Made by a program: the position numbers and the translations under genes
Part shown: positions 19,123 to 60,159 of the stretch, piece after piece
Numbering within the stretch: position 1 is the stretch's first letter
Layout of the letters: the number at the start of each line of letters is the position of its first letter
NCBI GenBank assembly: GCA_028534125.1
Contig: CM052816.1
Span: 37,884,001-37,948,000 of the forward strand
Length of the DNA: 64,000 nucleotides
Direction: 5' to 3'
Source: Lama glama
Taxonomy: Eukaryota
The notes under the pieces: generated by a model
Told to the model about the DNA's origin: nothing
The model's input: the letters and a program-made list of their open reading frames with translations, nothing else
Database searches by the model: none

Positions 19123-20200
19123 AGGAAACCATAAACAAAATGAAAAGACAATCTACAGTATAGAATATATTTGCAAATAATGTGACTGACAAGGGCTTAC
19201 CTTCCAAAATATACAAACAGCTCATACAACTCAATAACAACAACAACAACAACAAAACAACAAACCATCCAATCAAGAAATGGGCAGAAAACCTAAACAC
19301 ACATTTCTCCAAAGAAGACAAACAGATGGCCAATAGGCACAAGGAAAGATGTTCACTATCACTATTAGAGAAATGCAAATCAAAACAACAATGAGGTATC
19401 ACCTCACATCAGTCAGAATGGCCATCATTAAAAAGTCCACAAACAATAAATGCTGGAGAGGTTGTGGAGAAAAGAGAAACATCCTACACTGTTGGTAGGA
19501 ATGTGGTTTGGTGTAGCCAATACTGAAAACAGTATGGAGATTCCTTAAAAAACAAAAATAGAGTTATCATATGATCCAGAAACCCCACTCCTGGGCGTAT
19601 ATCCAGAAGAAACTCTAATTCAAAAAGATACATGCACCCCAATGCTCATAGCAGCACTATTTACAATAGCCAAGACATAGAAGCAACATAACTGTTCATA
19701 TACAGATGAATAGGTAAATAAGATAGGGTATAGGGTGTGTACACACACACACTGGAATATTACTTAGCCATAAAAAAGAATAAAATAGTACCATTTGCAG
19801 TAACATGGACAGACCTGGTTATCATACTAAGTGAAGTAAGTCAGGCAGAGAAATACAAATATTGTGTGATATTCTTATATGTGGAATCTGAAAAAAATCA
19901 TACAAATCAACTTACTTACAAAACAGAAAGACTCACAGACAAAATAAACTTATGGTTTCCAAAGGAGAAAGGGTCAGGGACGAATAAACATGAAGTTCGG
20001 GATTAGCAGATAAAACTACTATATATAAAAAAGATAAATTATAAGGTTCTACTGTATAGCACAGGGAACTATATTTAATACCTTGTAATAACCTATAATA
20101 AAAAAGAATATGAAAATATATTTGTATGCACAAATGAATCACTATACTGTATACCAGAAACACAACATAGTGTATAAACTAGACTTCAATTAAAAAAAAA
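19123..20200 (+). mobile_element. 5'-truncated L1 (ORF2 C-terminus, 3' UTR, A tail), relatively young
   Basis: aaatgggcagaaaacctaaacacacatttctccaaagaagac ([14 protein letters not shown] in ORF 19182-19394), aatgaggtatcacctcacatcagtcagaatggcc, ending cttcaattaaaaaaaaa. Contains an (AAC)n run at about 19235-19265. Confidence 0.95.
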
Positions 20201-21863: not shown

Positions 21864-21947
21864 AAGTGAAACGAGTTGAGAACTACGATGATGACAGATG
21901 TAAACAAGTGAAACGAGTTGAGAACTACGATGATGACAGATGTAAAC
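21864..21947. repeat. Perfect 42-bp tandem duplication (2 copies)
   Basis: aagtgaaacgagttgagaactacgatgatgacagatgtaaac occurs at 21864-21905 and at 21906-21947. Confidence 0.97.
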
Positions 21948-27300: not shown

Positions 27301-27754
27301 GGCAATTCTAGATGATACAAATTTCTTTCCAATACTGACCCAAATTTTTACCCTATTTGTCATTTACCTATTCATGGTTTTTCAATTTCTAGCAACTCAG
27401 AAGAAATATAATCTTTGTTGCATATTAGAGATCTCCAAATGTTTGAAAATATTTACCATTGTTTCAACATCACCAGTGTTTGATTTTAAATATCATGTCT
27501 TCTATTTCAAAATCATGAGGAGGATAGGAAAAGATCACATTTTTCTTGTTCATTTATGACCGCAATTATTGGCAAATTATTTATATGTATTATTAACAAA
27601 CGCTTTGGAGACATTATTTAGCATGTGAAGCTATTTATTTTATCACTGACTGGACCACAGACTGCTGTACTTTGTTGAATCCATCTATATCATCCTGCAT
27701 TCTGTTAATTTTTTGCTTCAGGCATTGCTTATGCTTAAGACATCCCATTTACTT

Positions 27755-27839
27755 TTTTTTTTTCAATTGAGTTATAGTCAGTTTGCAATGTTGTGTCAAA
27801 TTCTGGTGTACAGCACACTTTTTCAGTCATACATGAATC
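27755..27839 (-). mobile_element. Very short (about 85 bp) L1 3'-end insertion with 14-bp TSD
   Basis: T tract followed by caattgagttatagtcagtttgcaatgttgtgtcaaattctggtgtacagcaca...; flanked by catcccatttactt at 27741-27754 and 27840-27853. Confidence 0.9.
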
Positions 27840-28419
27840 CATCCCATTTACTTATGATCTTTATAATGCATAAGTTAGGTAAAATAAAGCCTTCTAGATC
27901 AAATGAAATAACCAAATTCCATTAAATGACATTAATTTCATACTGAGCTCAATGTCAATAAGCTATGGGATAAAGATTTTTTAAGTAGTTCTTAAAGAGT
28001 ATTCTTACACACTGACAGGTGTTTTTCTCTTAATTGAATAGTTAATGGGGCTTAAAGTGTGCCCATAGGATGAATAGAGTATACTGATTAAATATATTAA
28101 GGATTAGGTAAAAATTCTCCCTTTCTCCTTAATCATTTATCTTACAATTCCATGATCCACATGGAACACCACTTCTTTATTCAACATGTAATACTGGAAA
28201 AACTTGTATTTTTCAAATACTAGTAATACAAAAGAGGGGATATCCTCTCCATTTTTGAGGAGATAACAGTCCGGTGGGGAGAGAAATAAAATTAACAATT
28301 AAAATTCAGTGTTTCAAGGGAATAAGAGAGATATACCCAAAAATGAGCAAACTAATCTTTCTGGTAATATTCAGAAAAACTGAAAAAGAAGTGATAATTG
28401 AATCAACTATTGAAAAGAG

Positions 28420-33735: not shown

Positions 33736-36700
33736 TTTCAGTGTGGTTCAGCTTAACCACACATTTACCAAAACAATCAAAACTTACAGCCCATAGAAAT
33801 TTAATTAAATGTGCTTCTTTTGACAGCAAATTGTTTCAAAATAAATGAGTGTCTTTACACAGGCTACACATGATTCAGTTTATTACGAGCAGCACAACTC
33901 CCTGTTTTCCAATGCTGCATTTAAATCATGTATTTACTTTACCTGTCAGGCACCTGCAGGCACTGAATTTGTTATCTTGAAATATTAGATAAATAATTGT
34001 TATTTAAATAAACAAGGCTGAACCAGTTGATATTAAAATAAAACAGGACATATTAGAAGTAAAAGAGACATTGATGAATTTCAGATTTAAGAGGCAAGAT
34101 TTTGGTAGTTTTTCTGCCTGCATAATTAAAATTATCCTTGTTTCACATGCCCTGTGTGTCTGCTGAACATTCTTTCTGTCGCTCATTTCTCTACACCTGT
34201 TTTTATTGGCCACTAATAGAAAGCCATTTCCATTCTAGAAGATGGCCTTGGCCACATCTAAATAACAGGTGACAAGCAGCCAACTAAAACCGATTTTGAC
34301 GTTGTAATCTAGATGTTCCACACTGGTTTATAATGGCTAATAAATGAGTGTTGAAATCCATCTTAAAAAGACTATTGAAGGTGATAACTTGTTATTTGCA
34401 GAAAGTTTCAGAATCTGAGTTTTATCTAGAAACGGTTCCTGAAAACAGTCATACCGTGGCCCCGGCCCTGCGGTTCTCTGTAGTTTCACTCTCTTATACC
34501 CTGTGTTGTGTCAGTGAGATAGACTCTTTTGAGGCTATGAAAGAGCAGCTGTGACATGCGTCTATTCTCACTTTGAGCCGTCAGTGTATTTTATTTAAAC
34601 AGTGGGCCTGAGCAGAGTGCTGATTCCTTTGTAAACTGGAGGAAAGTCTTTAGGTTAAAATAATCTAGTGAATCAGTCTCTATTCAAACGCTATTTTCAT
34701 GTCTCGGAACTTTAACATTAGCTTTGATCTCTATAACCATTTTTATGTACTTCTTCATATTATTTAACTTCTCTTTCATTAAATATGAAAAAGAATCTTC
34801 ACAATTACTTACCATAGCAACCACTGTAGAAGTAGATTCAAATGCCAAGACTGGCACAGAGTTCACAGTTGCTATAATCATGCCAAACAGTTTCCAACAT
34901 GACCCTGTGTAGTTACTTTAAGGCTTTTGTATCCTGATGGGAACAGTGAAGTGGATTTGCTTTTAATCAGCACATATGAATATCATCACTGTCATCATCA
35001 TTATCAACAACAGTGATAACAACAAAAACTACCTTGAGGGCTTCTATATAGCCCCCTATGCTAGACTTCATGTAATTTTGATTCTATATTACATTGGAAT
35101 ACTGGTTGCATAATGGCAAAAATGCTACTGCTGTACAGACATGTATACATCCACAACCGAATGAGATATGCAATACATAAAGGAGAAAAATACATACAAT
35201 GTGTATATACACACAAGTCTATTTGCAAAATTATAAATGGTTAGATCATTTCAGAAGAATATGAATAAAATTTTTATTAGCTAAGTGAATAAGTGACAAT
35301 GTATTATATATTTTTCCTCTACATAAATGTACATGCTTTTAATATACATTACTTTTCAATTTCTTTTTTCTATTTGCTAGAACACTTTATTTATATTTCT
35401 TTTGAAGTCTTATATTTTTCCATAAAAACTTCATGTAGCTACTTAGAAAAAGGGTGACTATGCCTCCTGGTCCCATCTTGCCTCAAGATGCAACTAATTT
35501 TTATTCTTTCCCTTTTCTTACCCTTCACTGAAACACATATGTATCTAATCTTTCTCTATGTCAATATCAGGCTTTGTCCTAGGCTCTGGAAAACCATCAA
35601 TTAGCAAGAGAAATACAGTCTCAATCTCATGGAACTTGAAATATTTTAGGGGAGATAGCCACTAGACAATTACATAATTAACAGATTTTAATTATGATAG
35701 TTGCAGTTCTCACTATCACCCAACCGAGTATCTATTCACTTGCTTTTAGATAAATTAAACCATTTAATTTGCTTTTGTTCTGAAATTTAAAGTATTTTTT
35801 CTGATAATATTGGCATTTGATAAGTTGAAAAACAAGTGCAATATCATTCAAAAAAAGGTATGGATGGAAATTTTCTATATACTTGCTTGATAACAAGCAG
35901 TGACATTAATGAAAAACTCCAAAGAGAAGGATACCAATGATAATTTTCACAGAAATATTCCTGGTTTTGAATAACTGTAAAAACCATGAGGTACAAGTTT
36001 TGAAGTGTGGGTCACAAAGTTAATGATGACAATTTGCTATGGAGATTATTTTTTAGCCAAATATGATACAGAAGCAGTTGTTATAGTAAAGAAAACTATA
36101 TTGTATACATTTTAAAAATCAAGTTTAAAGTTAAAGACAAAAACCAATGCTTCTGAAACTTCTAATTTTCAGATAATTATAAAATTATTGTAATAATTAA
36201 AAAATCAAATAAATAAAAATATATAAAAGGCAGAGAGGGAAGATAGCAAAGTAAGAAGACATGGACCTCACCTCCCACCATGAACACATAAAAACCTTAT
36301 CTACTTATGGAACAATTCTCATGGAAAACTAACTGAAAACTGGCAGAAGGACTCCTGTACAGCCAAGGATATAAGAAAGATACACACATAATCGAGAATG
36401 ATGGGAAGAAAAGCACCATGTAGGGACCCATTCCCCTAGGAGAGGACTCAGATTAAAAGGAGATTGCACAGGTCGACACTCACCCTGGGGGGTGAGCAGG
36501 CTGAGCCACAAACTGGGCATCCCAATCCTGGGGTCCTAGGGAGAGGAGACAAGTGCCCCTGGCTGACTAGAGAACAACCGGATCAGATAAAAAGGCTGGA
36601 GAAGCGTAGACTCCCCTCATGAGAAGTGTGCAGGTGCTGGCTTACCCCCAGGCAGGGCAGAGAGTGGTGTGCCCTAGTGGCTGCTCCTCAGTCCAAGCCA

Positions 36701-37525
36701 TGTGAATGCCCCAGCCCTGCTCACTCCACATCACAGCTTGACACTGGATCTGGGGTGGCCAGGACCTTGGAAAAGACTCAGTCTAGAATGTAGAGGCAAC
36801 ACAGGGGCCTATGGCATAGCCCAGATGAGGTGCTGTCAGCTGTTTCTGGCACTGACTCAAGCAGCACCACAGAAGCAGATCGGACTTCTGATGGTAGTGG
36901 GGCCACCAGTATTCCTGAGACTACCCCAGTGCACTCCCCAGCCCAGGCGAACACTCCAAACCAACTAACTCCATGTCACAGCATACTACTAGATCTGGGG
37001 TGGGCACAGCTGGAGAAAAGACACAATGTGGGCTGCATCTGAGCGGAGTCACAGATGCCTACACTGTCAGAACACTGAACCTCTGTAAGCACATCAGCCC
37101 CACTTGCTTCAGTACTTCTCTCCTTTGATGCCAAAGTCCCGGTATGGGGAGAAAAAACATATATATCAAAGTTAAAAGGAACAGACCTAGCTCAAGCCTG
37201 GCCCTCAGGGCTTGTGCTCCAGCAACTTAAGATCAGATCCTGCCCTTGACAGGGTAATGACAGCAAAGCAGAGAGGAAGTTCCACCTCACACCCTGCACA
37301 AGCTCTAGCTCCTCCATCATCAGCAACATCCACTACCAAGGTGATAGTTTGCAGCACACCCTAAGGAAAGACTTGACTGGCATCCACATCAAATATACCC
37401 CTCCCACCAAAGGCACTGAGCACACAAAGTCTATACGGGGATGTTCTCATGTATGAATACCCCTTCAAGACCACAATAGGTAACTGTTTCACCTAAATTC
37501 ACAGAAGTTGAGAAAGATAACTAAA

Positions 37526-38855: not shown

Positions 38856-41800
38856 ATGACAATAAATATATACTTATTAATAATTACTTTAAATATCAAT
38901 GGGCTAAATGTTCTAATCAAAATATATTGGGTAGATGATTGGATTAAAAAACAAGACAGTTCAATACACTGTCTAAAGAGACTCACTTCAGTGTGAAAGA
39001 CACAGACACTGAAAGTAAAGGAGTGGAAAAAGATATTTAATGCAAACAAACAAAAAGAATGCAGGGGTAGTAATATTTATATCAGACAAAATAGACTTTT
39101 CAAAACAAAGGTTATAATAAAAAACAAAGAAGGAATTATCATAAAGAGATCAACAGAAGAAATTATACTTATTAACTTATATGCACCCAATAAAGGAGCA
39201 CCTAAATATGTAAAGCAAATACTAACATACATAAAGGGAAATACTGATGATAATACAGTAATAGCTGGGGACTTTAACACTCCACTGACATCAATGAACA
39301 GATCATCCAGACAGAAAATCAGTGAGGCAACAGTGGTCTTAAATGACACAATAGACCAGTAGAACTTAATAAATATCTACCAAGACTACAACCAAAAACA
39401 GCATAATACACATTATTTTCAAGTGCGCTCCAGGAGAGATCACTCACTAGGCCACAAAAAAATAAAAGCCTCTACAAGTTTGAGAGGATAGAAAGTATAC
39501 TAAGAATTTTTTCCAACCACAATGGTATAAAGCTAGAATTCAGCTACAGAAAAAAAAAAAAAATGGGAAAATTACAAACACATGGAACTAAACATGAGGA
39601 TGCTAAAAAACCAATTGGTTGATAATGGAATAAAAAAGGAAATCAGAAAATATCTTGAGACAAATAAAAAAGGAAATACAACAAAACTTTCCAAAATCTG
39701 TGGGATGCTATAAAAGTAGGTCTCAGAGGGAAGCTCATAGGGATACAGTGCTTCTTAAAGAAACAAGAAAAATCTCAAATAAACCTACCAACTATAAGAT
39801 TTAGAAAAGGGAGAACAAAGTAGAAAGTCAGGAGAAGGAAAGAAATAAAGATCAGGGAAGAAATAAATAAAATAAAGATTTTAAAAATTGAAAAGATCGA
39901 TGCAACAAAGAGCTGGGTTTTTTTAAAAGATAAAAATTAATAAACCTATAGACAAGCTCACCAAGAAAAGAGAACAAATAAATACGAAATGAAAGAGGAG
40001 AAATAACCGATACCACAGAGATACAAATTACAAGTGAATACTGTCAAAACATATGCCAACAAATGGGACAACCTTGAAGAAATGGACAAACTTCTGGAAA
40101 TATACAACCAAACAAGACTGAGTCAAGAAGAAAGCAGACAATTTGAACAGACCAATTACTAGAAGTGAAATTTAATGTTAAAAAAAAAATCCAGGCAAAC
40201 AAAAGTTCAAGACTGGATGGCTTCATGGGGATATTCTACCAAACATTTAACAAAGGAATTACACCCATCATTTTTAAACTATTTTGAAAAACTGAAGAGG
40301 AAGGAACACTCCCAAACTAGTTCTACAAGGCCATCATTACCCTGATATCAAAACTGACAAAGATACAATGAAAAATTTACAAGCCAGTATCTTTGATAAA
40401 CATAAATACAAAATTCTCCAACAAAATATTAGCAAACTGAATCTAACAATATATAAAAAGGATCATACAACATGATCAAGTTGGGTTTATTACAGCATCA
40501 CAATTACGGTTCTTCATTTACAAATAAATCAAAGTGATACACCACACTGACAAGGGATAAAAATCACATGATCATATCAACTGATGCAGAAAAAAAGTGA
40601 CAAAATTTAACATCTATTCATGATAAAAACTCTGATCACAGTGGGTCTTGAGGAAACACACATCAAGAGAATTAAGACTATTTATGACAAACCCACAGCC
40701 AACATAATTCTCAACAGTGAAAAACTGAAAGCCTTTAGCTAAATTCAGGAACAAGACAAGGAAGCACACTCTTGTCACTTCAATTTAACATAGTGTTGGA
40801 AGTCCTAGAAACAGCAAGCAGGCAAGAAAAAGAAATATAAAATATCCAATTTGGAAGGCAAGAATTCAAACTGTAACTGTTTGCAGATGACATGATACCC
40901 TGAAGTCTCCACCCAAAACTATTAGAACTAATAAATAAATTCGGCAATGTTGCAGGATACGGGACGAATACACAATCTGTTGTGTTTCTACACACTAACA
41001 ACGAAATATCAGAATGAGAAAGTTAAAAAAAAAAAAAACCACTTAAAATCACAACAAAAAGGATAAAATTCCTAGCAGTAAACTTAAACAAGGAGGTGAA
41101 GAACCTATACTCTGAAAACTATAGAACACTGATAAAGAAACTGACAATGATTCAAAGAAATGGAAAGATATCATATGCTCTTGAATTGGAAGAATTAATG
41201 TTGTTAAAATGTGCATACTACTCAAAGCAATCTGCAGATTTAACACCATTCCTATCTAAATACCCATGACATTTTTCACAGAGCTAGAAGAAATAATCCT
41301 ATAATTCATATGGAACCACAAAAGACAACAGCTCAACAAAGCATCTTGAGAAAAAAGCAAAAAGCTGGAGGTATAACCCTCTCAGACTTCTGACTGTACT
41401 ACAAAGCTGCAGTGCTCAAAACAGCATAATACTGGCACAAAAACAGACACATAAGTCAATGGAACCAAAGAGAGAGGTCAGACATAACCCCATACACCTG
41501 TAGTCAATTAATCTACAACAAAGGAGGAAAGAATATGCAATGGAGAAAAGACAGTCTCTTCAACAAGCGGTGGTGGGAAAACTGGACAGCCACATGAGAT
41601 TATAACAATGAGATTAGAAAATTCCTTCACACCATATACAAAATTAACTCTAAGGGGCAGGATATAACTCAAGTGGTAGATCACAAGCTTGGTGTGCATG
41701 GGGTCCTGGGTTCAATTCCTAGTACCTTCTCTAAAAACAAACAAACCTAGTTACCTCCCTCGGAACAAACACAAAAACAAAAAATTAAATATAACAAATA

Positions 41801-42733: not shown

Positions 42734-44224
42734 AAAAATAATACAAATGAGTGTATATACAAAATAGAAGCAGACCCACAGATAACAAATGCGGTTACCA
42801 AGGGTGGAGGTGGAAGTGGGGAGGGACAAATTAGGGATACGGGATTAACAGATACAAATTACTATGTGTAAAATAGATAAGCAACAAGGATATATTTATA
42901 GCATAGATAATTATAGCCATTATCTTGTAATAATCTATAATGCAGTATAATTTGCAAAAAAACCTGAAACACTATGCTGTACATCTGAAACTAATACTGT
43001 AAATCTACTTCAATAAAAAACATAAGACGCAATAAATTGTTGAATAAAAGCAACTATGTAACCCATTAAAATATGCTGTTAATGAAAGAGAAAAAGGATA
43101 TATTTAAGTAAATCCTTGAAAGCTTGCTTAGAAGAAGGAAAATTGAGAGCATGGAAGTAATATATGCATGATGGACAGAGGGACAGTGTTCACTTTTTTA
43201 GCTTTCCATTTAAAAGTAAGAAGGCATGATGACGGTATCACTGAGAAAATAAAGCTTTCTCTTTAAGAAAAAAAAGTAATAGCTAGATACTGACATGAAA
43301 TGCATGTATGTGAGTATTCAGAGGGGAGGTTTCCTATCATAAGGCTGTGGTGTGGTTGAATAACATATTTCCATTATGCTGATGAGAAAGGATCTTTAAA
43401 CAGATAGAGAGTCTATTGAAAGAATGAAATTATGCTTCACAGTGTTCATAAGCATAGGGCAAAAGACTCACAGGTAGAGTGAGTACATTTCCTCCTTGCT
43501 CTTCCTAATTCAGGTAGAGGCTTTGCCTACAGAATAGACAGAGGTGAAAAAATACAGTATTTTTTTCAAATTTAATATTCAGATTCTAGTTGATAGTCAA
43601 AGAAAATCTGCACTTATGCTAGGTTATTCATAGGCTTCTCTTATTTTGTTACCTAAACATTTATCTAAAACTAATTTCATATAAATCTGCTAAAAAGAAT
43701 GTTAACAGAATTTAACTTGACTTGAATGTGGTACCATTATTCACAATATGACTAACTCCATAATACAAGTAGGCAAGTTAGAATCGCAAGCTCCAAATAG
43801 CGTTTTGTGCATTTCCTTACTTTGGAAACATCCACACAGGTATCATTTATTATCACACACAGTTATCATTACCATCTCCTCTTCTGAACCCCAATATTTT
43901 ATTGCTTTCTATGATATTCCAATTCTTAAATATGATATTGATATTTTAGTTTGCTCTATGTGGATAATAAGAATCAACTTGGAATTTGAACATCACAAGA
44001 AAAATAAAAATTGGCTTCATTTTATATTATCTTCTGTTTTCATTTTATGACTTCATAAAATTGTCTTGATTTCTCAAAATAGAGGTTTTAGTTAACTTTG
44101 AAGTGGTCATTTAAATTAAAATGGCTCCTTAATTACTTGAAACTCCTCAGATACTGGAAGCACAGAAAGAAAAGAGTTAGGGTTTAAGTGAAGTTGAACA
44201 TCATATTAAGCTCAATGGTGCTTT

Positions 44225-52006: not shown

Positions 52007-53881
52007 ATCTGGTTTCAGTTCCTCAAGTAAGGAGCTTGGAAGTCACCATTCCATCCAAGTAACGAGTACACGCTGAACAGATTGAAAAATCAACTTTTCT
52101 TGGATTTGTAAGAGAGAGGAGGACACAAGGCAAACCAGTGCCTGAAGACTGGAAACACAGACCGGCAAATACAAGGAGTCATGCTTTACTGGAGCACATT
52201 CACCAGCAGAAACCAACACAGGATCCAGAGCCAGGGCAGGAAAACCTGAAATGTTACTGATGATTCGCTGGAGGCTCAGTGCGTAGAAATCTGAGAGTTA
52301 AAAAATCCTGAGGGACCCCACAGTGCTTTGAGATTTACCTCCAGGCATTTGACCAAATTCTCATGGTAAACAGTGATGAAAACTCCCCTCCTGCTTCTGG
52401 CAAAAGGAGAGGAAAAGGAACCATTTTGAAATATGCTAGAGTACTCTGGTCTTAATAAGACCTGCCCTTGGGGGAAACAGTTAATCAGAGCCTATCATAC
52501 AGGGTATTAGCAGAGCCAAAATGACCTGGAGAAGGGTAACGCCCAACTCCAGCCCTCCCTAGACACCCTGTGCCACCAAAGATGGGAGGAAAAAAGTGAG
52601 AAACACTTGTGAAGTGCACTTCAGAGGCATACATTTAAAAACTCTACGTGCTCATAAATCCAGAGGCACAGGCTCACTTAAAAAACTAAGACCTAATCAT
52701 GGGACTGTAAGAACACTTCCCCTCTCCTCATACCTCATTGTCACGTTACTAAAAGCCTATTTGCACCAGTTCCTTGTACCCAGTACAGCTGCACCCAGTT
52801 CAGCAACCAATAAAAATTTCCAAAGCATCCCCAAAGGAAAAAAAAAAAAAAAACACGATTTGAAGAGACAGAACAAGCATTGGAACCAGACATGGCAGTG
52901 ATGTTGGAATTATCAGAGTAGGAATTTAAAAATGGCTATAGTGAATATGCTAAGGACTCTAATGGATAAAATAGCAAGCATTAAAGAAGAGACGGGCAGT
53001 GTAAGCATAAAGATGGAAATCTACCCCCCCAAAAAAAGAACCAGTAAGGAATGCTAGAGATAAAAACATTGCATTGTAACAGGCAGACCGTACATGGCTA
53101 AGGAAAGAATCTCTGAGGTAGAAGATTTATTAATAGAATCCTCAAAAACTGCGGAAAGGAAAAAAAAAGGTCAGGGGGAAAATGCAGAACAGAATATACA
53201 AAGTCTGTGTGACAACTTCAAAAGTTTTAACATACATGTAATGGGAAAACCAGAAGTGAAGAAAAAGAGACGGGAGCAGAAAAGAATATCTCAAACAATA
53301 ATGACTGAGAGCTTCTCCCAAATTAATTCAGAAACAGTAAGCTCAGAGAACATCAAGAAAGATAAATGCCAAAACACCTACACTAAGAGATAATATTTTC
53401 AAACAACAGGATATCAAAATTTTTATTACTAAGAGAAAAACGTCAATCTAAAAGGCTACATACTGTGTGATTTCAAATATATGACATTCTGGAATAGGCA
53501 AACAATGGTGATAAAAATAAAAAGATCAGCGGTTTCCAGGACTGGTGGTGGGGAGGGATAAATAAGCCAAGCAAAGAGGAATTTTAAGGGTAGTGAAAAT
53601 ACTCTGCATGGTATTATAATAATAGATGTATCATTACACATTTGCTAAAACTTGTAGAATGTACACCAAGAGTGAACCCTAAGGTAAACTAAGGACTTTG
53701 TGTGATTATGGTATGTCAGTGTAGATTTATCTTGGTTAAAAATAAAAGTACCATTCTGATGTTTATTATGGGGCAGGCTATATATTTGTGGGGTAGGGAA
53801 TATGGGGAAATCTCTGTATCTCCCTCTCAATTTTATTGTAAATATAAAACCTCTCTAAAAAAACAGTCTTAAAAAATGAAG
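52007..53881 (+). mobile_element. Internally deleted L1 (5' UTR and partial ORF1 joined to an L1MC1/2-like 3' end; essentially no ORF2)
   Basis: ORF1 remnant AKERISEVED...EQNIQSLCDNFKSFNIHVMGKPE (ORF 53094-53393). At about 53420 it switches to tattactaagag...aaggctacatactgtgtgatt, an L1 3' end. Degenerate 16-bp flanking duplication at 51991-52006 / 53882-53897. Confidence 0.75.
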
Positions 53882-55660
53882 AGAGATCCGCACTAAGCAG
53901 GACTACAGCATGGTCAAACTGCTGAAAATCAAGGCAAAGAGAGCACGTGAAGAACCATATGAAAAAAAATTCCTCACCACACACACGGAATCCTTAAAAA
54001 TTAACAACTCTTTCCTTCAGAAACTATGGAGGCCTGAAGGCAATGACATAACATGTTTAAAGTGCTGAAAGAGAAAGACTGTCAACAAAAAAATTCTACA
54101 CACAGTAAAATTATACTTCATAAATAAAGGATAAACTAAGCCACTGCCAGATAAAGCAAAATAAGAAAATTAATTGCTGACAGACCTACCCCAGAAGATA
54201 TTCTAAAGAAAGTCTTTCTAACTGAAATGAAACAACACTAAAGAATAGTTAAATTCTCTCAAAGAAGTAAAGAACGCTGTAAAAGTAACTACTTAGGTAA
54301 CTGTAAAAGACGGTAAAATATATTTTTTGCAACTCTTTTTTTGTATGTTGCTTAAAAGACAAGTACATAAATCAATAATTATAATACTATGTTGATATGC
54401 TTACAATATTTAAAGATGAAATGTCTACGATAATTACAGCACAAATGAGAATGATGGAGATATAACTGAACAAAACTTCTGTATAATATCAAAATTATTT
54501 TAGTACTAATCTAAACTTGATTGCTTTACATTAAGATGAAAATTGTAATCTCAAGGTTACAAAAAATTTTTTAAATAAAGTAAAATAAATGTTATCCTTA
54601 AAATCCCTTTAACATGCAAGTAGGCAATAATGGAGAAATAAAGGAACAGGAACAAGAGTAAATATAAGAAATACAGAAAACAAGTGTCAGAGTGGCAGAT
54701 GTAAGTCCTACCTCATGTCACGACATCAAATGTAAATGGATTAAATGCTCCAAAAGAAATCAGAGACTTCAAGATGGAAAAAAAAAAATCCGACTATATG
54801 CTGTATACAAGAGACACACTTTAGACTATAAAACAAAATAACTTGAAAAAATTTTATATCATGCAAACTATAATCAAGTAAGCCTGGAATGGTTATAGAA
54901 ACACAAAATGAAAAAGACTTTAAGTGAAAACTGTTATAATACACAAAGTGAAGCACTTCATAATGATACAGAAATTCAAGTATCAGGAAATTATAACTGT
55001 AAATATATATGTACCGAAAACAAAGCACCCAAATTCATTAGACTCACTGAGAAAATTGAAGAAAACAGACAATAATAATAACTGGAAACTTTGATACCTG
55101 AATTTCAATGATGGACAGAACAACTAGATAGAAGATCAAAAAAGAAATGAAAAGCTTAATACTATCAATCTAGTAGATCCAACAGAAACCTATAGAATGC
55201 TCTATAGAACTACAGAATACAAATTATTATTAATTATAAATGGAACATACTCCCAGATAGAAAATATTTAGGTGATAATACAAGTCTCAATAATTAAAAT
55301 GATTAAAATTGCACAAAGTATAGTCTCTGACCACAATGAAATAAAATAATAAACCATCAACAGAATAAAATTTGGGGAATTCATAAACATGTGGAAATTA
55401 GAGTGTATTTTCAAACAATAAACATAACAAAGAAGCAGCCAAAAGGCAAATCAGAAAAAAACTTTTAGATGAATGAAAATAAAAATACTATATACCTGCA
55501 ATTATGTGAGCAAATAACATAGTGCAAATTAGAAAACTTATAGCTATAGACATATATGTCTCAACAAAAACAATCTATCAGCTCAATAAACTAATCTTCC
55601 ACCTTAAGATACTGGAAAAAGAAGAAAATGTAAAATCAAAGTTTGCAAAAGAATGAAAAT

Positions 55661-56505
55661 TATGATATTGTGATTTATAAGAAATATATATATATTTGGT
55701 CATTTGGATGATCAAGTATGTATTTTTTATATTTGATCTTTGTCCACAGTTTTTGGCTCACAGCTCTCCAAACCCTTGGAACTTCCTGAATAAAAGCAAA
55801 GAGAAAAGTTTTGTTATAATATTGTCTTTCAGAACCATGAAGGTGAAATGGGTGTTGTATAATTCATAACAAGCCCCTCTTTACCACAACTGGGTTTATG
55901 TTAATGATGTGACTTTGGGAAAGCAAATAGGGATTGGGGGCTGCTTGCCAGGGGAATAAACCATGATTAAGGGGTTGGAATTTTCAGTCCCACCCCCAGA
56001 ATTGGAGGCTGAATCAATTTCCAATACCCAATGATTTAATCAATCATATTTATGTAATACAGCCCCCATAAAACCTCACAAGAACAGGATTCAAAGAGCT
56101 TCTGGGCTGAGAACACATAAAGATTTGGGGAGAGTGGCATACCTGGAGAGTGTATGAAAGTTTCTGCCCATTTCCCCATACCTTGGCTCAATGCATCTCT
56201 TCCATATGGCTGCTCCTGAATTATGTATTTTAATAACCAACTGGTAATCTAATAAGTAAAACAATTCTCTGACTTTTGTGAGCTGCTCTGGCAAGTTAAT
56301 CAAACCCAAGGAGGGGATTATGGAAACATCCAGTCATAGCTAGTTGTTCTGAAGCACAGCTGATAATTTGGGCTCACAGTGACATCTGTGATGGGGAAGG
56401 GGGCACTCTTATAGGCCTAAATCCTTAACCTATGGAATCTGATGCTATTTCTGGACAGATAGTGTCAGAACAGAGTTGCTTGCTGGTGTGGGAAATGCCC
56501 TCACA
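55661..56505 (+). mobile_element. MER21-like LTR
   Basis: Begins tatgatattgtga...tatatttggtc; blocks ttcataacaagcccct, ggggttggaattttcagtcccacc, aatgatttaatcaatcat, gtgagctgctctggcaagttaatcaaaccc. The right boundary is approximate. Confidence 0.8.
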
Positions 56506-57470
56506 AGAGAAGATACCAAGTTCAAACTTTTATTAAAATTAAAAGATTATACATTAATAGTATGAATAATGGAATTAGGTAACTGATTAAATGGATAAAT
56601 TTCCAGAAACATAATTGTAACTGATTTAAGAGAATATTGAAAATCTGAATGGATCTATATCAGGTAGAGATTGAATTGGTAATTGGAAACCTCTCCACAA
56701 AAAAGAGTCCAGGTTCAAATGGCTTCACTGTTGAAATCCATCAAACGTTTAAACCATAAATATCTTTCAGAAACTTGAAAAAAATAGAAGGTAAAGAAAT
56801 ACTTCCTAAATTATTCTATGAGGCAAGTATTACTCTGATACAAAAACCAAAGACACCACAAGAAAAGCAAACTACAGATCAATAACCCTCTGAAATACAG
56901 ATGCAAAATACTTCAAAAAGACTAGCAGATGAGATCTAGCAATACATAATAAATGCATATCATGAACAAGGAGAATTTATTCCACAAATGCAAGATTTGC
57001 TCAATACATGTAAATCAATCAATGTAATAGACCTTATTAATGAGATAAAGGAGAAATAAAAAATAATCTTGCCTATACAGGTAGAAAAAGTATTTGGAGG
57101 ACAACATCCATTCATGATAAAAATAATCAACAAATCTGTAACATAAGGGTACTTACTCAAACTGAAAAACATCATTTACTAAACCCCTACATTAAACATC
57201 ATACTTAACTGGAATTTCCAAAACTTTCTCCTTAAGAACCATAAGGAGACAAGGATATTTTTGCTACTTCTGTTCAATCTTACAGGAGGTCCTAGTCTGA
57301 GCAATTAAGCAAGAAAAGGAAATTTAAATTATGCAGACTAGGAAGAAGTAAATTTATCTCTAATTGTAGATGGCATGATTTTGTACACAGAAATTCTTAA
57401 GGACTCTGCTAATAACCATTAGAGTTTACATAGAGGTTAACCAAAGCTGCAAGGTATGCAATCAATATTA

Positions 57471-58369
57471 ATGAGTGTGTATATGTTCATGAATGACTGA
57501 AAAATTGTGCTGAACACTGGAATTTGACACAACACTGTAAAATGATTATGAATCAATAAAAAATGTAAAAAAAAAAAAAGATCCACAGAAGGGCCCCAAT
57601 CAAGGGCCAAATGTTGACTTGGTTGATTAAGTCTCTTACATCAGAGTGTACATTTTTAGCAGAGGAACAGTTTCATTTCTTTCCTAGATCAGTACATGGA
57701 ACGAGAAGTTCCTGGCAGGAGGGCTCTTCCAGCTTCATAGCTTAGTGGTGGTTCTGAGCACGAGCCCTGCGTGCCGGAGTTGTGTGGGCAGTGGGTACAG
57801 TGTTGGTGGGAGGATAAATGGTAGCACCTGGGGAGTGGGTACAATGGTGCCCTCTGTCAAAAAGGAACACACGTAGTGTTTGCACCTCTAGGAGTAACTC
57901 CTACTTATAACCCCCATGTGTAGCTAAACATGTATGTTCAGGATGTTCACTGCAGCATCGTTTGCTATCAGAGAATCCCTCAGCAGGGGACTAATCAAAT
58001 ACACTATAAGACAACTCTACCATGGCACCTAGGCAGCTACTTAAAAGCTGGGGACAGGGTCGGGGCGGGAGGCAGGTTGTCTCCAAGATCTATAAAGTAA
58101 GATGGAGAATGGTGGTACTATACTTACATTTGAGTTAAAAAAAAAAGTGGGGAAGCAATATAGATACATTAATGCTTGCATATGCTTTGACTATCTCCCC
58201 AGGGGTAAGGGGGAGATTTACTTGTGCACTGTACACTCACATGTGCAAATTGAATTGTTGTAACCTATGCCTATATTGATACACATATGTATGTATGCAT
58301 GTGTGTGTGTTTTGAAATAAGTTTAAATTAGGATTTTTAAATAAAACAAGCCTGGATTTGAAAAAAAAA
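57471..58369 (+). mobile_element. Short young L1 3' end with putative 3' transduction and second A tail
   Basis: L1 3' terminus 57471-57566 with AATAAA at 57555; A13 at 57567-57579; unrelated sequence 57580-58360 with AATAAA at 58340; A9 at 58361-58369; the host L1 resumes afterwards. Confidence 0.8.
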
Positions 58370-60159
58370 TTTAATTGAAGTGCTACATATTATCAATGAA
58401 AAAAATCCAAGAATAAGATGAGAAAACAATCCCATTTACAACAGTATCAACAAAAAATAAAATACTTAGGAAGAAATTTAACAAAATAAGTGCAAGATTT
58501 GTTCAATGATAACTAAATAACATTGTTGAAAGAAACTAAAGAGGATCTAAGTAAATATACAAATATCCACTTCCATGAACCAAAAGACTTAAAGTTATAA
58601 AGATGGAAATACTCCCCAAATTGATCTACAGATTCAATAAAATCCTTTCAAAATTCTAGCTGCCTGTTTGTATTTTTGTTTGTTCTGTGGAAATTGGCCA
58701 ACTGATCCCAAATCTCATGTAAAATGCAAAGGGCACAGAATAGCTAAAATAATGCAAAAAACTCTGAAAAGGGAGGACACTTCTCAATTTCAAAACTTAC
58801 TGCAAAGACATAGTAATCAAGACTATGTGGTGCTGGTAATAAGTATGGACATTTAGATAAATTGCAAAGAATCTAGAGTCTACAAAGAAACCCTCACATT
58901 CATGTTTTCAACAAGGGTTTCAAGAAGATTCAATGGAGACATAATAGTCTTTCTAACGAATGGTGCTGGGACAATTGGATATTTGCATGAAAGAATAAAT
59001 GAAATGGACTTTTGTTACAACATATACAAAAATTAACTCAAAATAAGTTATAGGTCCAAATCTAAGAGCTAAACAGCTAAAATTCTTACATGGCGACATA
59101 TACTTAACTTTGTGACCTTGCATTAGGCAATGGTTTCTTAGATATGACACTAAAAGCACATGTGTCAAAGTTTAAAAAATAGGTAAACTAGACTTCATCA
59201 AAACTAAAAACTTCTGTTCTTTTAATCATACCATTAAGAAAGTGAAAGTCAGCCCACAGTAGGAGAGAAAACATTTGAAAAATCTTAGAACGAATAAGGC
59301 ACTTGTACCCAGGATATATACGGAAATGTTACAATCCAACAATAAAAAGATAAATGTTCAAATTAAAAATAGGTAAAACATTTATACAGACTTTTATCCA
59401 AAGTAGATACACAAATGCCAATAAGCACATGAAAACAAAATTATCAACATTAGATAAATGCAAATGAAAACCGTAAGATACCACTTCATACCCACTAGAA
59501 TGGCTATGATAAAAAAGAAAAACAGTACAATGTTAGAAAGTGATATGGAGAAACTGGAACACACATATAATAATGGTGACAATGTAAACTGATTCTATGG
59601 TAAACAGTTTCGGTGGATCCTCTTAGAATTATTAGGTATATACCCTAAAGAAAGGAAAATAGGCATTCAAAAAAAAGCATACACAAATGTTCATGGCAGC
59701 ATTATTCTTAATAACAATCCAAATCTTAATCAAATGATAAATTAATAAAATGTGATATATTTATGCAATGGAATATTATTTGGCTATGAAAAGGAAAGTG
59801 CTGATACATGATACAACATAGATAAATCTCAAAAATATCGTAAGTGAAAGAAACAAGGGACAAAAGACCACCTGTTTGTGTTTCCATTTATACGAAATGG
59901 CCAAAACAGTCAAACATACAGAGATAGAAATTAGATATGTTTTTGCGTAGGGTGAGGAGGTGGGGTGGATGGATAATGACTCCTAATCTCTATAGTACTT
60001 TATCATGGGGTGATTACAATGATGATAAAATTAGATGTTAGTGATGGCTGCATAACTCTGAATACACTAAAAACTTTAAATAGGTTAATTTTTAGTATAT
60101 TAACTATATCTCAATAAAACTATTTACATAAAAAAAATAGCAAACATACTTTTATGACT

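Follow-up and report, generated by a model that had tools for sequence, protein, structure and literature searches.

A probable L1 3′ transduction, joined with a target-site duplication of at most 2-3 bp, within an old L1 of Lama glama

Introduction

By what route did some 900 bases come to divide the second reading frame of an old L1 element, when these bases begin as an L1 3′ end, pass through an A-run, continue as DNA of another base composition and finish in a second A-run? The question is raised by a locus in a stretch of 64,000 nucleotides (hereafter the window), a mammalian and AT-rich sequence (33.8% GC) that holds many decayed L1 copies. An earlier note on this DNA had proposed an L1 3′ transduction, in which a source element would have been read through its own polyA signal so that the DNA lying downstream was carried along. 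According to an excerpt of PMC4862182, a transduction has the structure of a target-site duplication (TSD), L1, transduced sequence and polyA, and the TSDs left by TPRT usually measure 4-25 bp. Here we describe the insert and its host, weigh the explanations that can be offered for it, and conclude that a single 5′-truncated L1 3′ transduction, with blunt or almost blunt integration, accounts for it with a probability of roughly two in three. The insert would then be a real but ordinary retro-insertion by a well-known mechanism, probably one 3′ transduction.

The insert and the host L1

The features of the locus are as follows, the foreign DNA between the two A-runs being called the passenger.

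56520..57469, + strand: left arm of the host L1, ORF2 (RT region), aligned to the L1 copy at 40075-40970 and ending in ATT
57470..57566, + strand: 5′-truncated L1 3′ tail with AATAAA at 57555; the two A's at its start may be either TSD or microhomology
57567..57579, + strand: internal A13, putatively the genomic tail of the source element
57580..57790, + strand: 5′ part of the passenger, with no significant match in the window
57790..58345, + strand: probable decayed sense-strand L1 3′ end, with an ORF2 C-terminus remnant at about 57790-58000 and probably 3′ UTR up to the AATAAA at 58340
58062..58069, + strand: GGGGCGGG, a GC-box-like motif present in the sequence
58340..58345, + strand: second AATAAA, the sole A[AT]TAAA in 57594-58360
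58361..58369, + strand: A9, about four A's of terminal tail plus five A's needed by the host frame (58365-58369)
58365..60130, + strand: right arm of the host L1, including its own 3′ end, with AATAAA at 60113

The two polyA signals (57555 and 58340), the A13 (57567-57579), the A9 (58361-58369), GGGGCGGG at 58062 and a passenger of 781 bp were all reproduced at the places where the earlier note had put them. In the order of the strand, the insert thus consists of an L1 tail, AATAAA, A13, foreign DNA, AATAAA, 15 nt and an A-run.

The host, an old L1 of almost full length on the + strand, ends near 60130 and contains other nested inserts. The insert, from 57470 to about 58364 (~900 bases), divides its ORF2 with no net loss of codons. 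That the host is interrupted and then resumes, as had been claimed, is confirmed by both arms aligning over their full length with another L1 copy, so that they are collinear across the insert and meet at about 40966-40970; this copy (40075-40970) matches residues 668-750 of human ORF2p with an E value of 1.5e-16. The translation of the left arm ends in ...TKAARYAINI and that of the right arm, from 58365, reads KNLIEVLHIINEK, both being in register with human ORF2p provided that five A's are assigned to the host. Read from this host frame, the target would be ATT with five A's behind it and thus a TT/AAAA site of the endonuclease type, so that five of the nine terminal A's would belong to the host and about four would be left for the tail. 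The insertion would accordingly lie at the L1 endonuclease consensus, the hexamer TTAAAA occurring five times in the 1,986 bp of the host arms, insertion site counted.

The junctions are less typical. At the left one there are two A's only, directly followed by tail sequence, and for this reason a TSD could measure at most 2-3 bp (AA or AAT); no TSD of the usual 4-25 bp encloses tail and passenger, and a comparison of the junction regions gives a direct repeat of 6 bp at most, which is out of register. The earlier observation that no long TSD is visible is therefore upheld, while the suggestion that one might be concealed in the A-run is ruled out by the same two A's.

Other features accompany this locus. 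A GC-richer block at about 55670-56510, which resembles a solo LTR of MER21 type, also interrupts the host L1, and the ORF1 region of the host holds at about 53420-53890 what may be the 3′ end of another old L1, a sequence used as an alignment target. Elsewhere in the window, a perfect 42-bp tandem duplication occupies 21864-21947 and the most GC-rich tile (0.51) lies at about 36700-37500, where 677 bp with an A-run end, possibly another retro-insertion, lie between direct repeats of 11 bp (starting points 37081 and 37758).

The L1 tail on the 5′ side

The short segment that opens the insert can be assigned, by alignment within the window, to an L1 3′ end. A second tail, at 27753-27837, shares 82% identity with it over 88 bp. 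Moreover, 57470-57550 aligns with the 3′ ends of two ORF2-bearing L1 copies (near 20100 and near 42950) at scores that only 3 and 0 of 300 shuffles, respectively, reached, the comparison with two other ORF2-bearing copies being not significant (236 and 60 of 300 shuffles). The insert therefore carries on its 5′ side what a partnered transduction is expected to carry, namely the 3′ end of an L1 together with the polyA signal and the A-run of that element. The tail sequence has a camelid look.

The second tail is informative in its own right. Lying on the − strand within 27740-27853, it belongs to the same L1 family, measures 85 bp and has an A-run and a perfect 14-bp TSD, and its L1 sequence (27753-27837) stops at its first A-run. 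As far as a single copy shows, this family normally makes TSDs and stops at its first signal, from which it follows, again on one copy, that the passenger is not the normal 3′ UTR of the tail family. The possibility that it was simply such a UTR, raised earlier as an observation that would undo the transduction reading, is thus not borne out.

The passenger and the decayed L1 3′ end within it

The passenger had been described as richer than the host in both GC and CpG. The first half of this description stands, GC being 0.437 as against 0.301 and 0.304 in the host flanks, a value reached by 4 of 79 equal-size tiles elsewhere in the window. The second half was dropped: the passenger holds eight CpG dinucleotides, with an observed/expected ratio of 0.22 that is close to the 0.20 of the window, and nine of the 79 tiles hold as many or more. 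Likewise, the importance attached to the GC box finds no support beyond the presence of the motif; GGGGCGGG, a post hoc pick, arises in 0.95% of 2000 shuffles and GGGCGG in 7%.

Searches with the passenger were largely silent. Against the rest of the window, blastn and nhmmer returned low-complexity TG/TA matches only; Pfam gave 0 families in seven translations of the searched part of the passenger, and Rfam gave no family at threshold, two sub-threshold miRNA matches over a TG/TA-rich stretch being taken as chance. Within the 5′ part, we take 57738-57785 to be a MIR-head-like stretch, a reading that no match within the window confirmed, and a pyrimidine tract ending in AG at 57671-57688 resembles a splice acceptor.

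At its other extremity, the passenger ends in ...CCTGGATTTG followed by the A-run, the second AATAAA standing 15 nt before A9. Such a signal 10-30 nt before the end appears in 1.3% of 2000 shuffles of 57594-58360 (a post hoc figure). The insert thus finishes as a transduction would, with a polyA signal 10-30 nt upstream of the terminal A-run, albeit a signal that may be the own signal of an older element.

Indeed, much of the passenger appears to be L1 itself. In motif and anchored tests picked after the sequence was seen, the frame RMFTAASFAI at 57940 shares 7 of 10 residues with the C-terminal motif of ORF2p, a figure that none of 500 shuffles reaches; only four other places in the window hold at least 6 of the 10 residues, and all of them are L1 ORF2 ends. 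In alignments anchored on this motif, the similarity to four copies begins at about 57790 (z 2.2, 4.4, 3.1 and 2.0), and the 3′ UTR part of the remnant is significant against one of five L1 copies. Approaches free of the anchor were less favorable: local alignments of 57860-58360 with seven L1 3′ ends, in both orientations, gave at best z 2.1, a DNA profile built from four in-window L1 copies found no match in the passenger, and a PDB search with the passenger frames, the motif frame included, gave no ORF2p match. A protein score reached by 0 of 150 shuffles in an unanchored alignment was set aside, as it concerns the minus strand and looks compositional. Since unanchored alignments of both protein and DNA missed the remnant, it is moderately, not firmly, established.

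With this reserve, the old L1 piece that had been noticed near 57920-57970 is present and more extensive than was thought, running from about 57790 and probably to the end of the passenger. About 70% of the passenger is likely to be a fossil L1 3′ end, possibly of the kind labeled L1ME, with the second signal at or near its old terminus. The distance from the motif to AATAAA is 400 nt in the remnant and 429 nt in the host L1, and the second AATAAA probably belongs to the decayed element. This closeness of the two distances suggests that signal and A-run may have pre-existed in the DNA, in which case they need not mark a new polyadenylation.

The remnant also bears on the history of the passenger. 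Its identity to other L1 copies (57-63%) is similar to that of the host (61-65%), so that the idea of a remnant more decayed than its host was dropped and decay cannot order the events. Its GC content is more telling, since it amounts to 42%, whereas the segment of the host that is homologous to the remnant has 32% (p 3e-4) and three other L1 copies have 32-36% (p 4e-4 to 0.04). This excess over homologous segments suggests that the remnant aged in a GC-richer region before being relocated.

Copies and occurrence

The earlier note had imagined that the passenger, if recurrent, would define a repeat lineage. For this idea we find no support, the 64-kb window holding no further copy of the tail-passenger unit. 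Metagenome scans for the passenger 3′ end and for the tail motif gave 0 and 0; as the blank for the tail motif suggests a collection devoid of host DNA, neither scan bears on copy number.

The passenger was also followed through 75 sampled words. Among the 24 sequencing runs listed, 14 hold a fraction of 0.91-0.99 of them, and when two possible source runs are excluded, 12 such runs are left, which come from 8 studies and carry 4 organism labels; this word sharing gives no information on position or copy number. Since runs from several labels hold these words, the sequence is common to close relatives. In six runs whose material is RNA by record or by guess, the fraction is 0.11-0.41 of the words, which is a measure of word sharing only and not of expression.

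That tail and passenger represent one copy of a lineage-specific dispersed family is, in our view, quite improbable. Under such a reading, a source L1 sitting just upstream of an ancient L1 remnant would have used the polyA signal of the fossil, and the tail extended by 780 bp would have spread many times, as a new L1 3′ UTR or a non-autonomous element. Were the unit multi-copy, it would illustrate an active L1 adopting the polyA signal of a fossil L1 as a heritable 3′ extension.

A 3′ transduction and its alternatives

The sequence of events that best accounts for the insert can be outlined as follows. Transcription of a source L1 located elsewhere would have passed over the polyA signal of that element and ended at the next AATAAA, which lay about 780 nt further on and was probably supplied by the old L1 remnant. 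The resulting RNA would have been primed and copied into the TT/AAAA site of the old host L1, reverse transcription would have halted once some 100 nt of the source L1 had been copied, and the junction at the 5′ end would have been made blunt or with an AA microhomology. The second strand may have been cleaved at or next to the nick, leaving a duplication of 0-2 bp.

The order of the parts, the endonuclease-type site, the spacing of the polyA signal and the foreign base composition are all consistent with a 3′ transduction. Against it stand a TSD of at most AA or AAT, as compared with 14 bp at the sister tail, and a terminal tail of about four A's beyond the five of the host. The proposal of the earlier note thus survives as the best explanation, and part of its argument is weakened: signal and A-run may already stand in the donor DNA, so that two tails say less than was supposed, the second AATAAA being probably that of the old L1. 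Membership of the insert in the class of L1 3′ transductions is consequently probable and not proven, since three hallmarks are present, the TSD is missing, and the window holds no donor locus.

All rival explanations draw chiefly on the missing TSD. One of them, which we regard as unlikely, is a retrocopy of a host RNA, whether a polyadenylated transcript copied, with a TSD consisting of A's alone, into the A-tail of a tiny L1 already in place, or a copied transcript with an L1 tail, truncated there. The 3′ signature would be identical, and retrocopies were indeed mistaken for transductions according to an excerpt of PMC4862182. The passenger words reach 0.28 in one recorded RNA run and 0.24-0.41 in three guessed RNA runs, which might reflect a transcript of the passenger. 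Nevertheless, the right run has nine A's, five of which are the host's, too few to provide both a tail and an A-only TSD without uneven erosion; the outer insertion would still be devoid of a TSD, and neither a coding match (Pfam) nor an RNA family (Rfam) was found.

Similarly improbable is a succession of two events, in which the passenger would be an ancient L1 fragment, inserted long ago and with its TSD eroded, and the L1 tail a later arrival at its 5′ junction. This would suit the absence of a TSD and the contrast between an intact internal A13 and a terminal tail that is very short, as well as a passenger made up mostly of an L1 3′ end in sense orientation, normal in length and about as decayed as the host. 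It would require, however, that the later tail, also deprived of a TSD, struck the old junction to the base; furthermore, the ~210 bp that precede the remnant are not L1-like, the GC of the remnant is far from local levels, and its subfamily, which may be older than that of the host, would also argue against it.

A copy made at the DNA level, by capture of a donor fragment (an L1 tail and its downstream DNA as far as the A-run of the old L1) at a break through microhomology-mediated repair and without any RNA, can be given little credence. It would explain the missing TSD and the A-rich character of both junctions, and signal and A-run may pre-exist in the donor; yet the break coincides with a canonical endonuclease site that is correctly oriented (five sites in 1,986 bp), and no host sequence is lost. 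Finally, an assembly artefact is very improbable, even if the junctions are known from the assembly alone, given a host frame in register on both sides and the 14 runs that hold 0.91-0.99 of the passenger words, whose position is not shown thereby.

Comparison with known systems

As a single event, the insert is of small weight, human L1 3′ transductions being catalogued by the hundreds. An excerpt of PMC9311842 counts 268 high-confidence transductions, 7-997 nt long, among 7,103 polymorphic L1s, and in one of PMC13009371 transductions make up about 25% of insertions, a signal lying 10-30 bp upstream of 274 of 349 transduction ends. In the literature searched we found no camelid transduction catalogue, the excerpted text of PMC8605555 having one mention of the process. 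The insert could be used to mark a lineage and to identify descendants of one extinct source L1 in what appears to be a camelid genome.

Processed retrocopies and gene retrocopy insertion polymorphisms, as they appear in the PMC4862182 excerpt, share with the insert an AATAAA with an A-tail and an L1-type site. The insert differs from them in that it starts with an L1 tail and an internal A-run and has no coding match.

From a typical L1 3′ transduction it departs by a TSD not exceeding 2-3 bp, by a terminal tail of about four A's beyond those of the host, and by a passenger that is largely a decayed L1 3′ end. With regard to the junctions, LINE integration can end in blunt joining according to the excerpted part of PMC2666801, whose data concern a zebrafish LINE in chicken cells, whereas here the empty site is deduced from the host frame. 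The absence of net gain or loss at the target brings the insert close to the blunt-joined or target-site-truncated LINE insertions of the model of Gilbert et al. 2002, as reported in that same excerpt.

The likeness to L1 3′ transductions extends to the second AATAAA, located 10-30 nt before the terminal A-run, and to a length within the 7-997 nt range of PMC9311842. Altogether, with its truncated L1 3′ end, its internal A-run, the downstream DNA that follows and an endonuclease-type site, the insert resembles most a partnered L1 3′ transduction.
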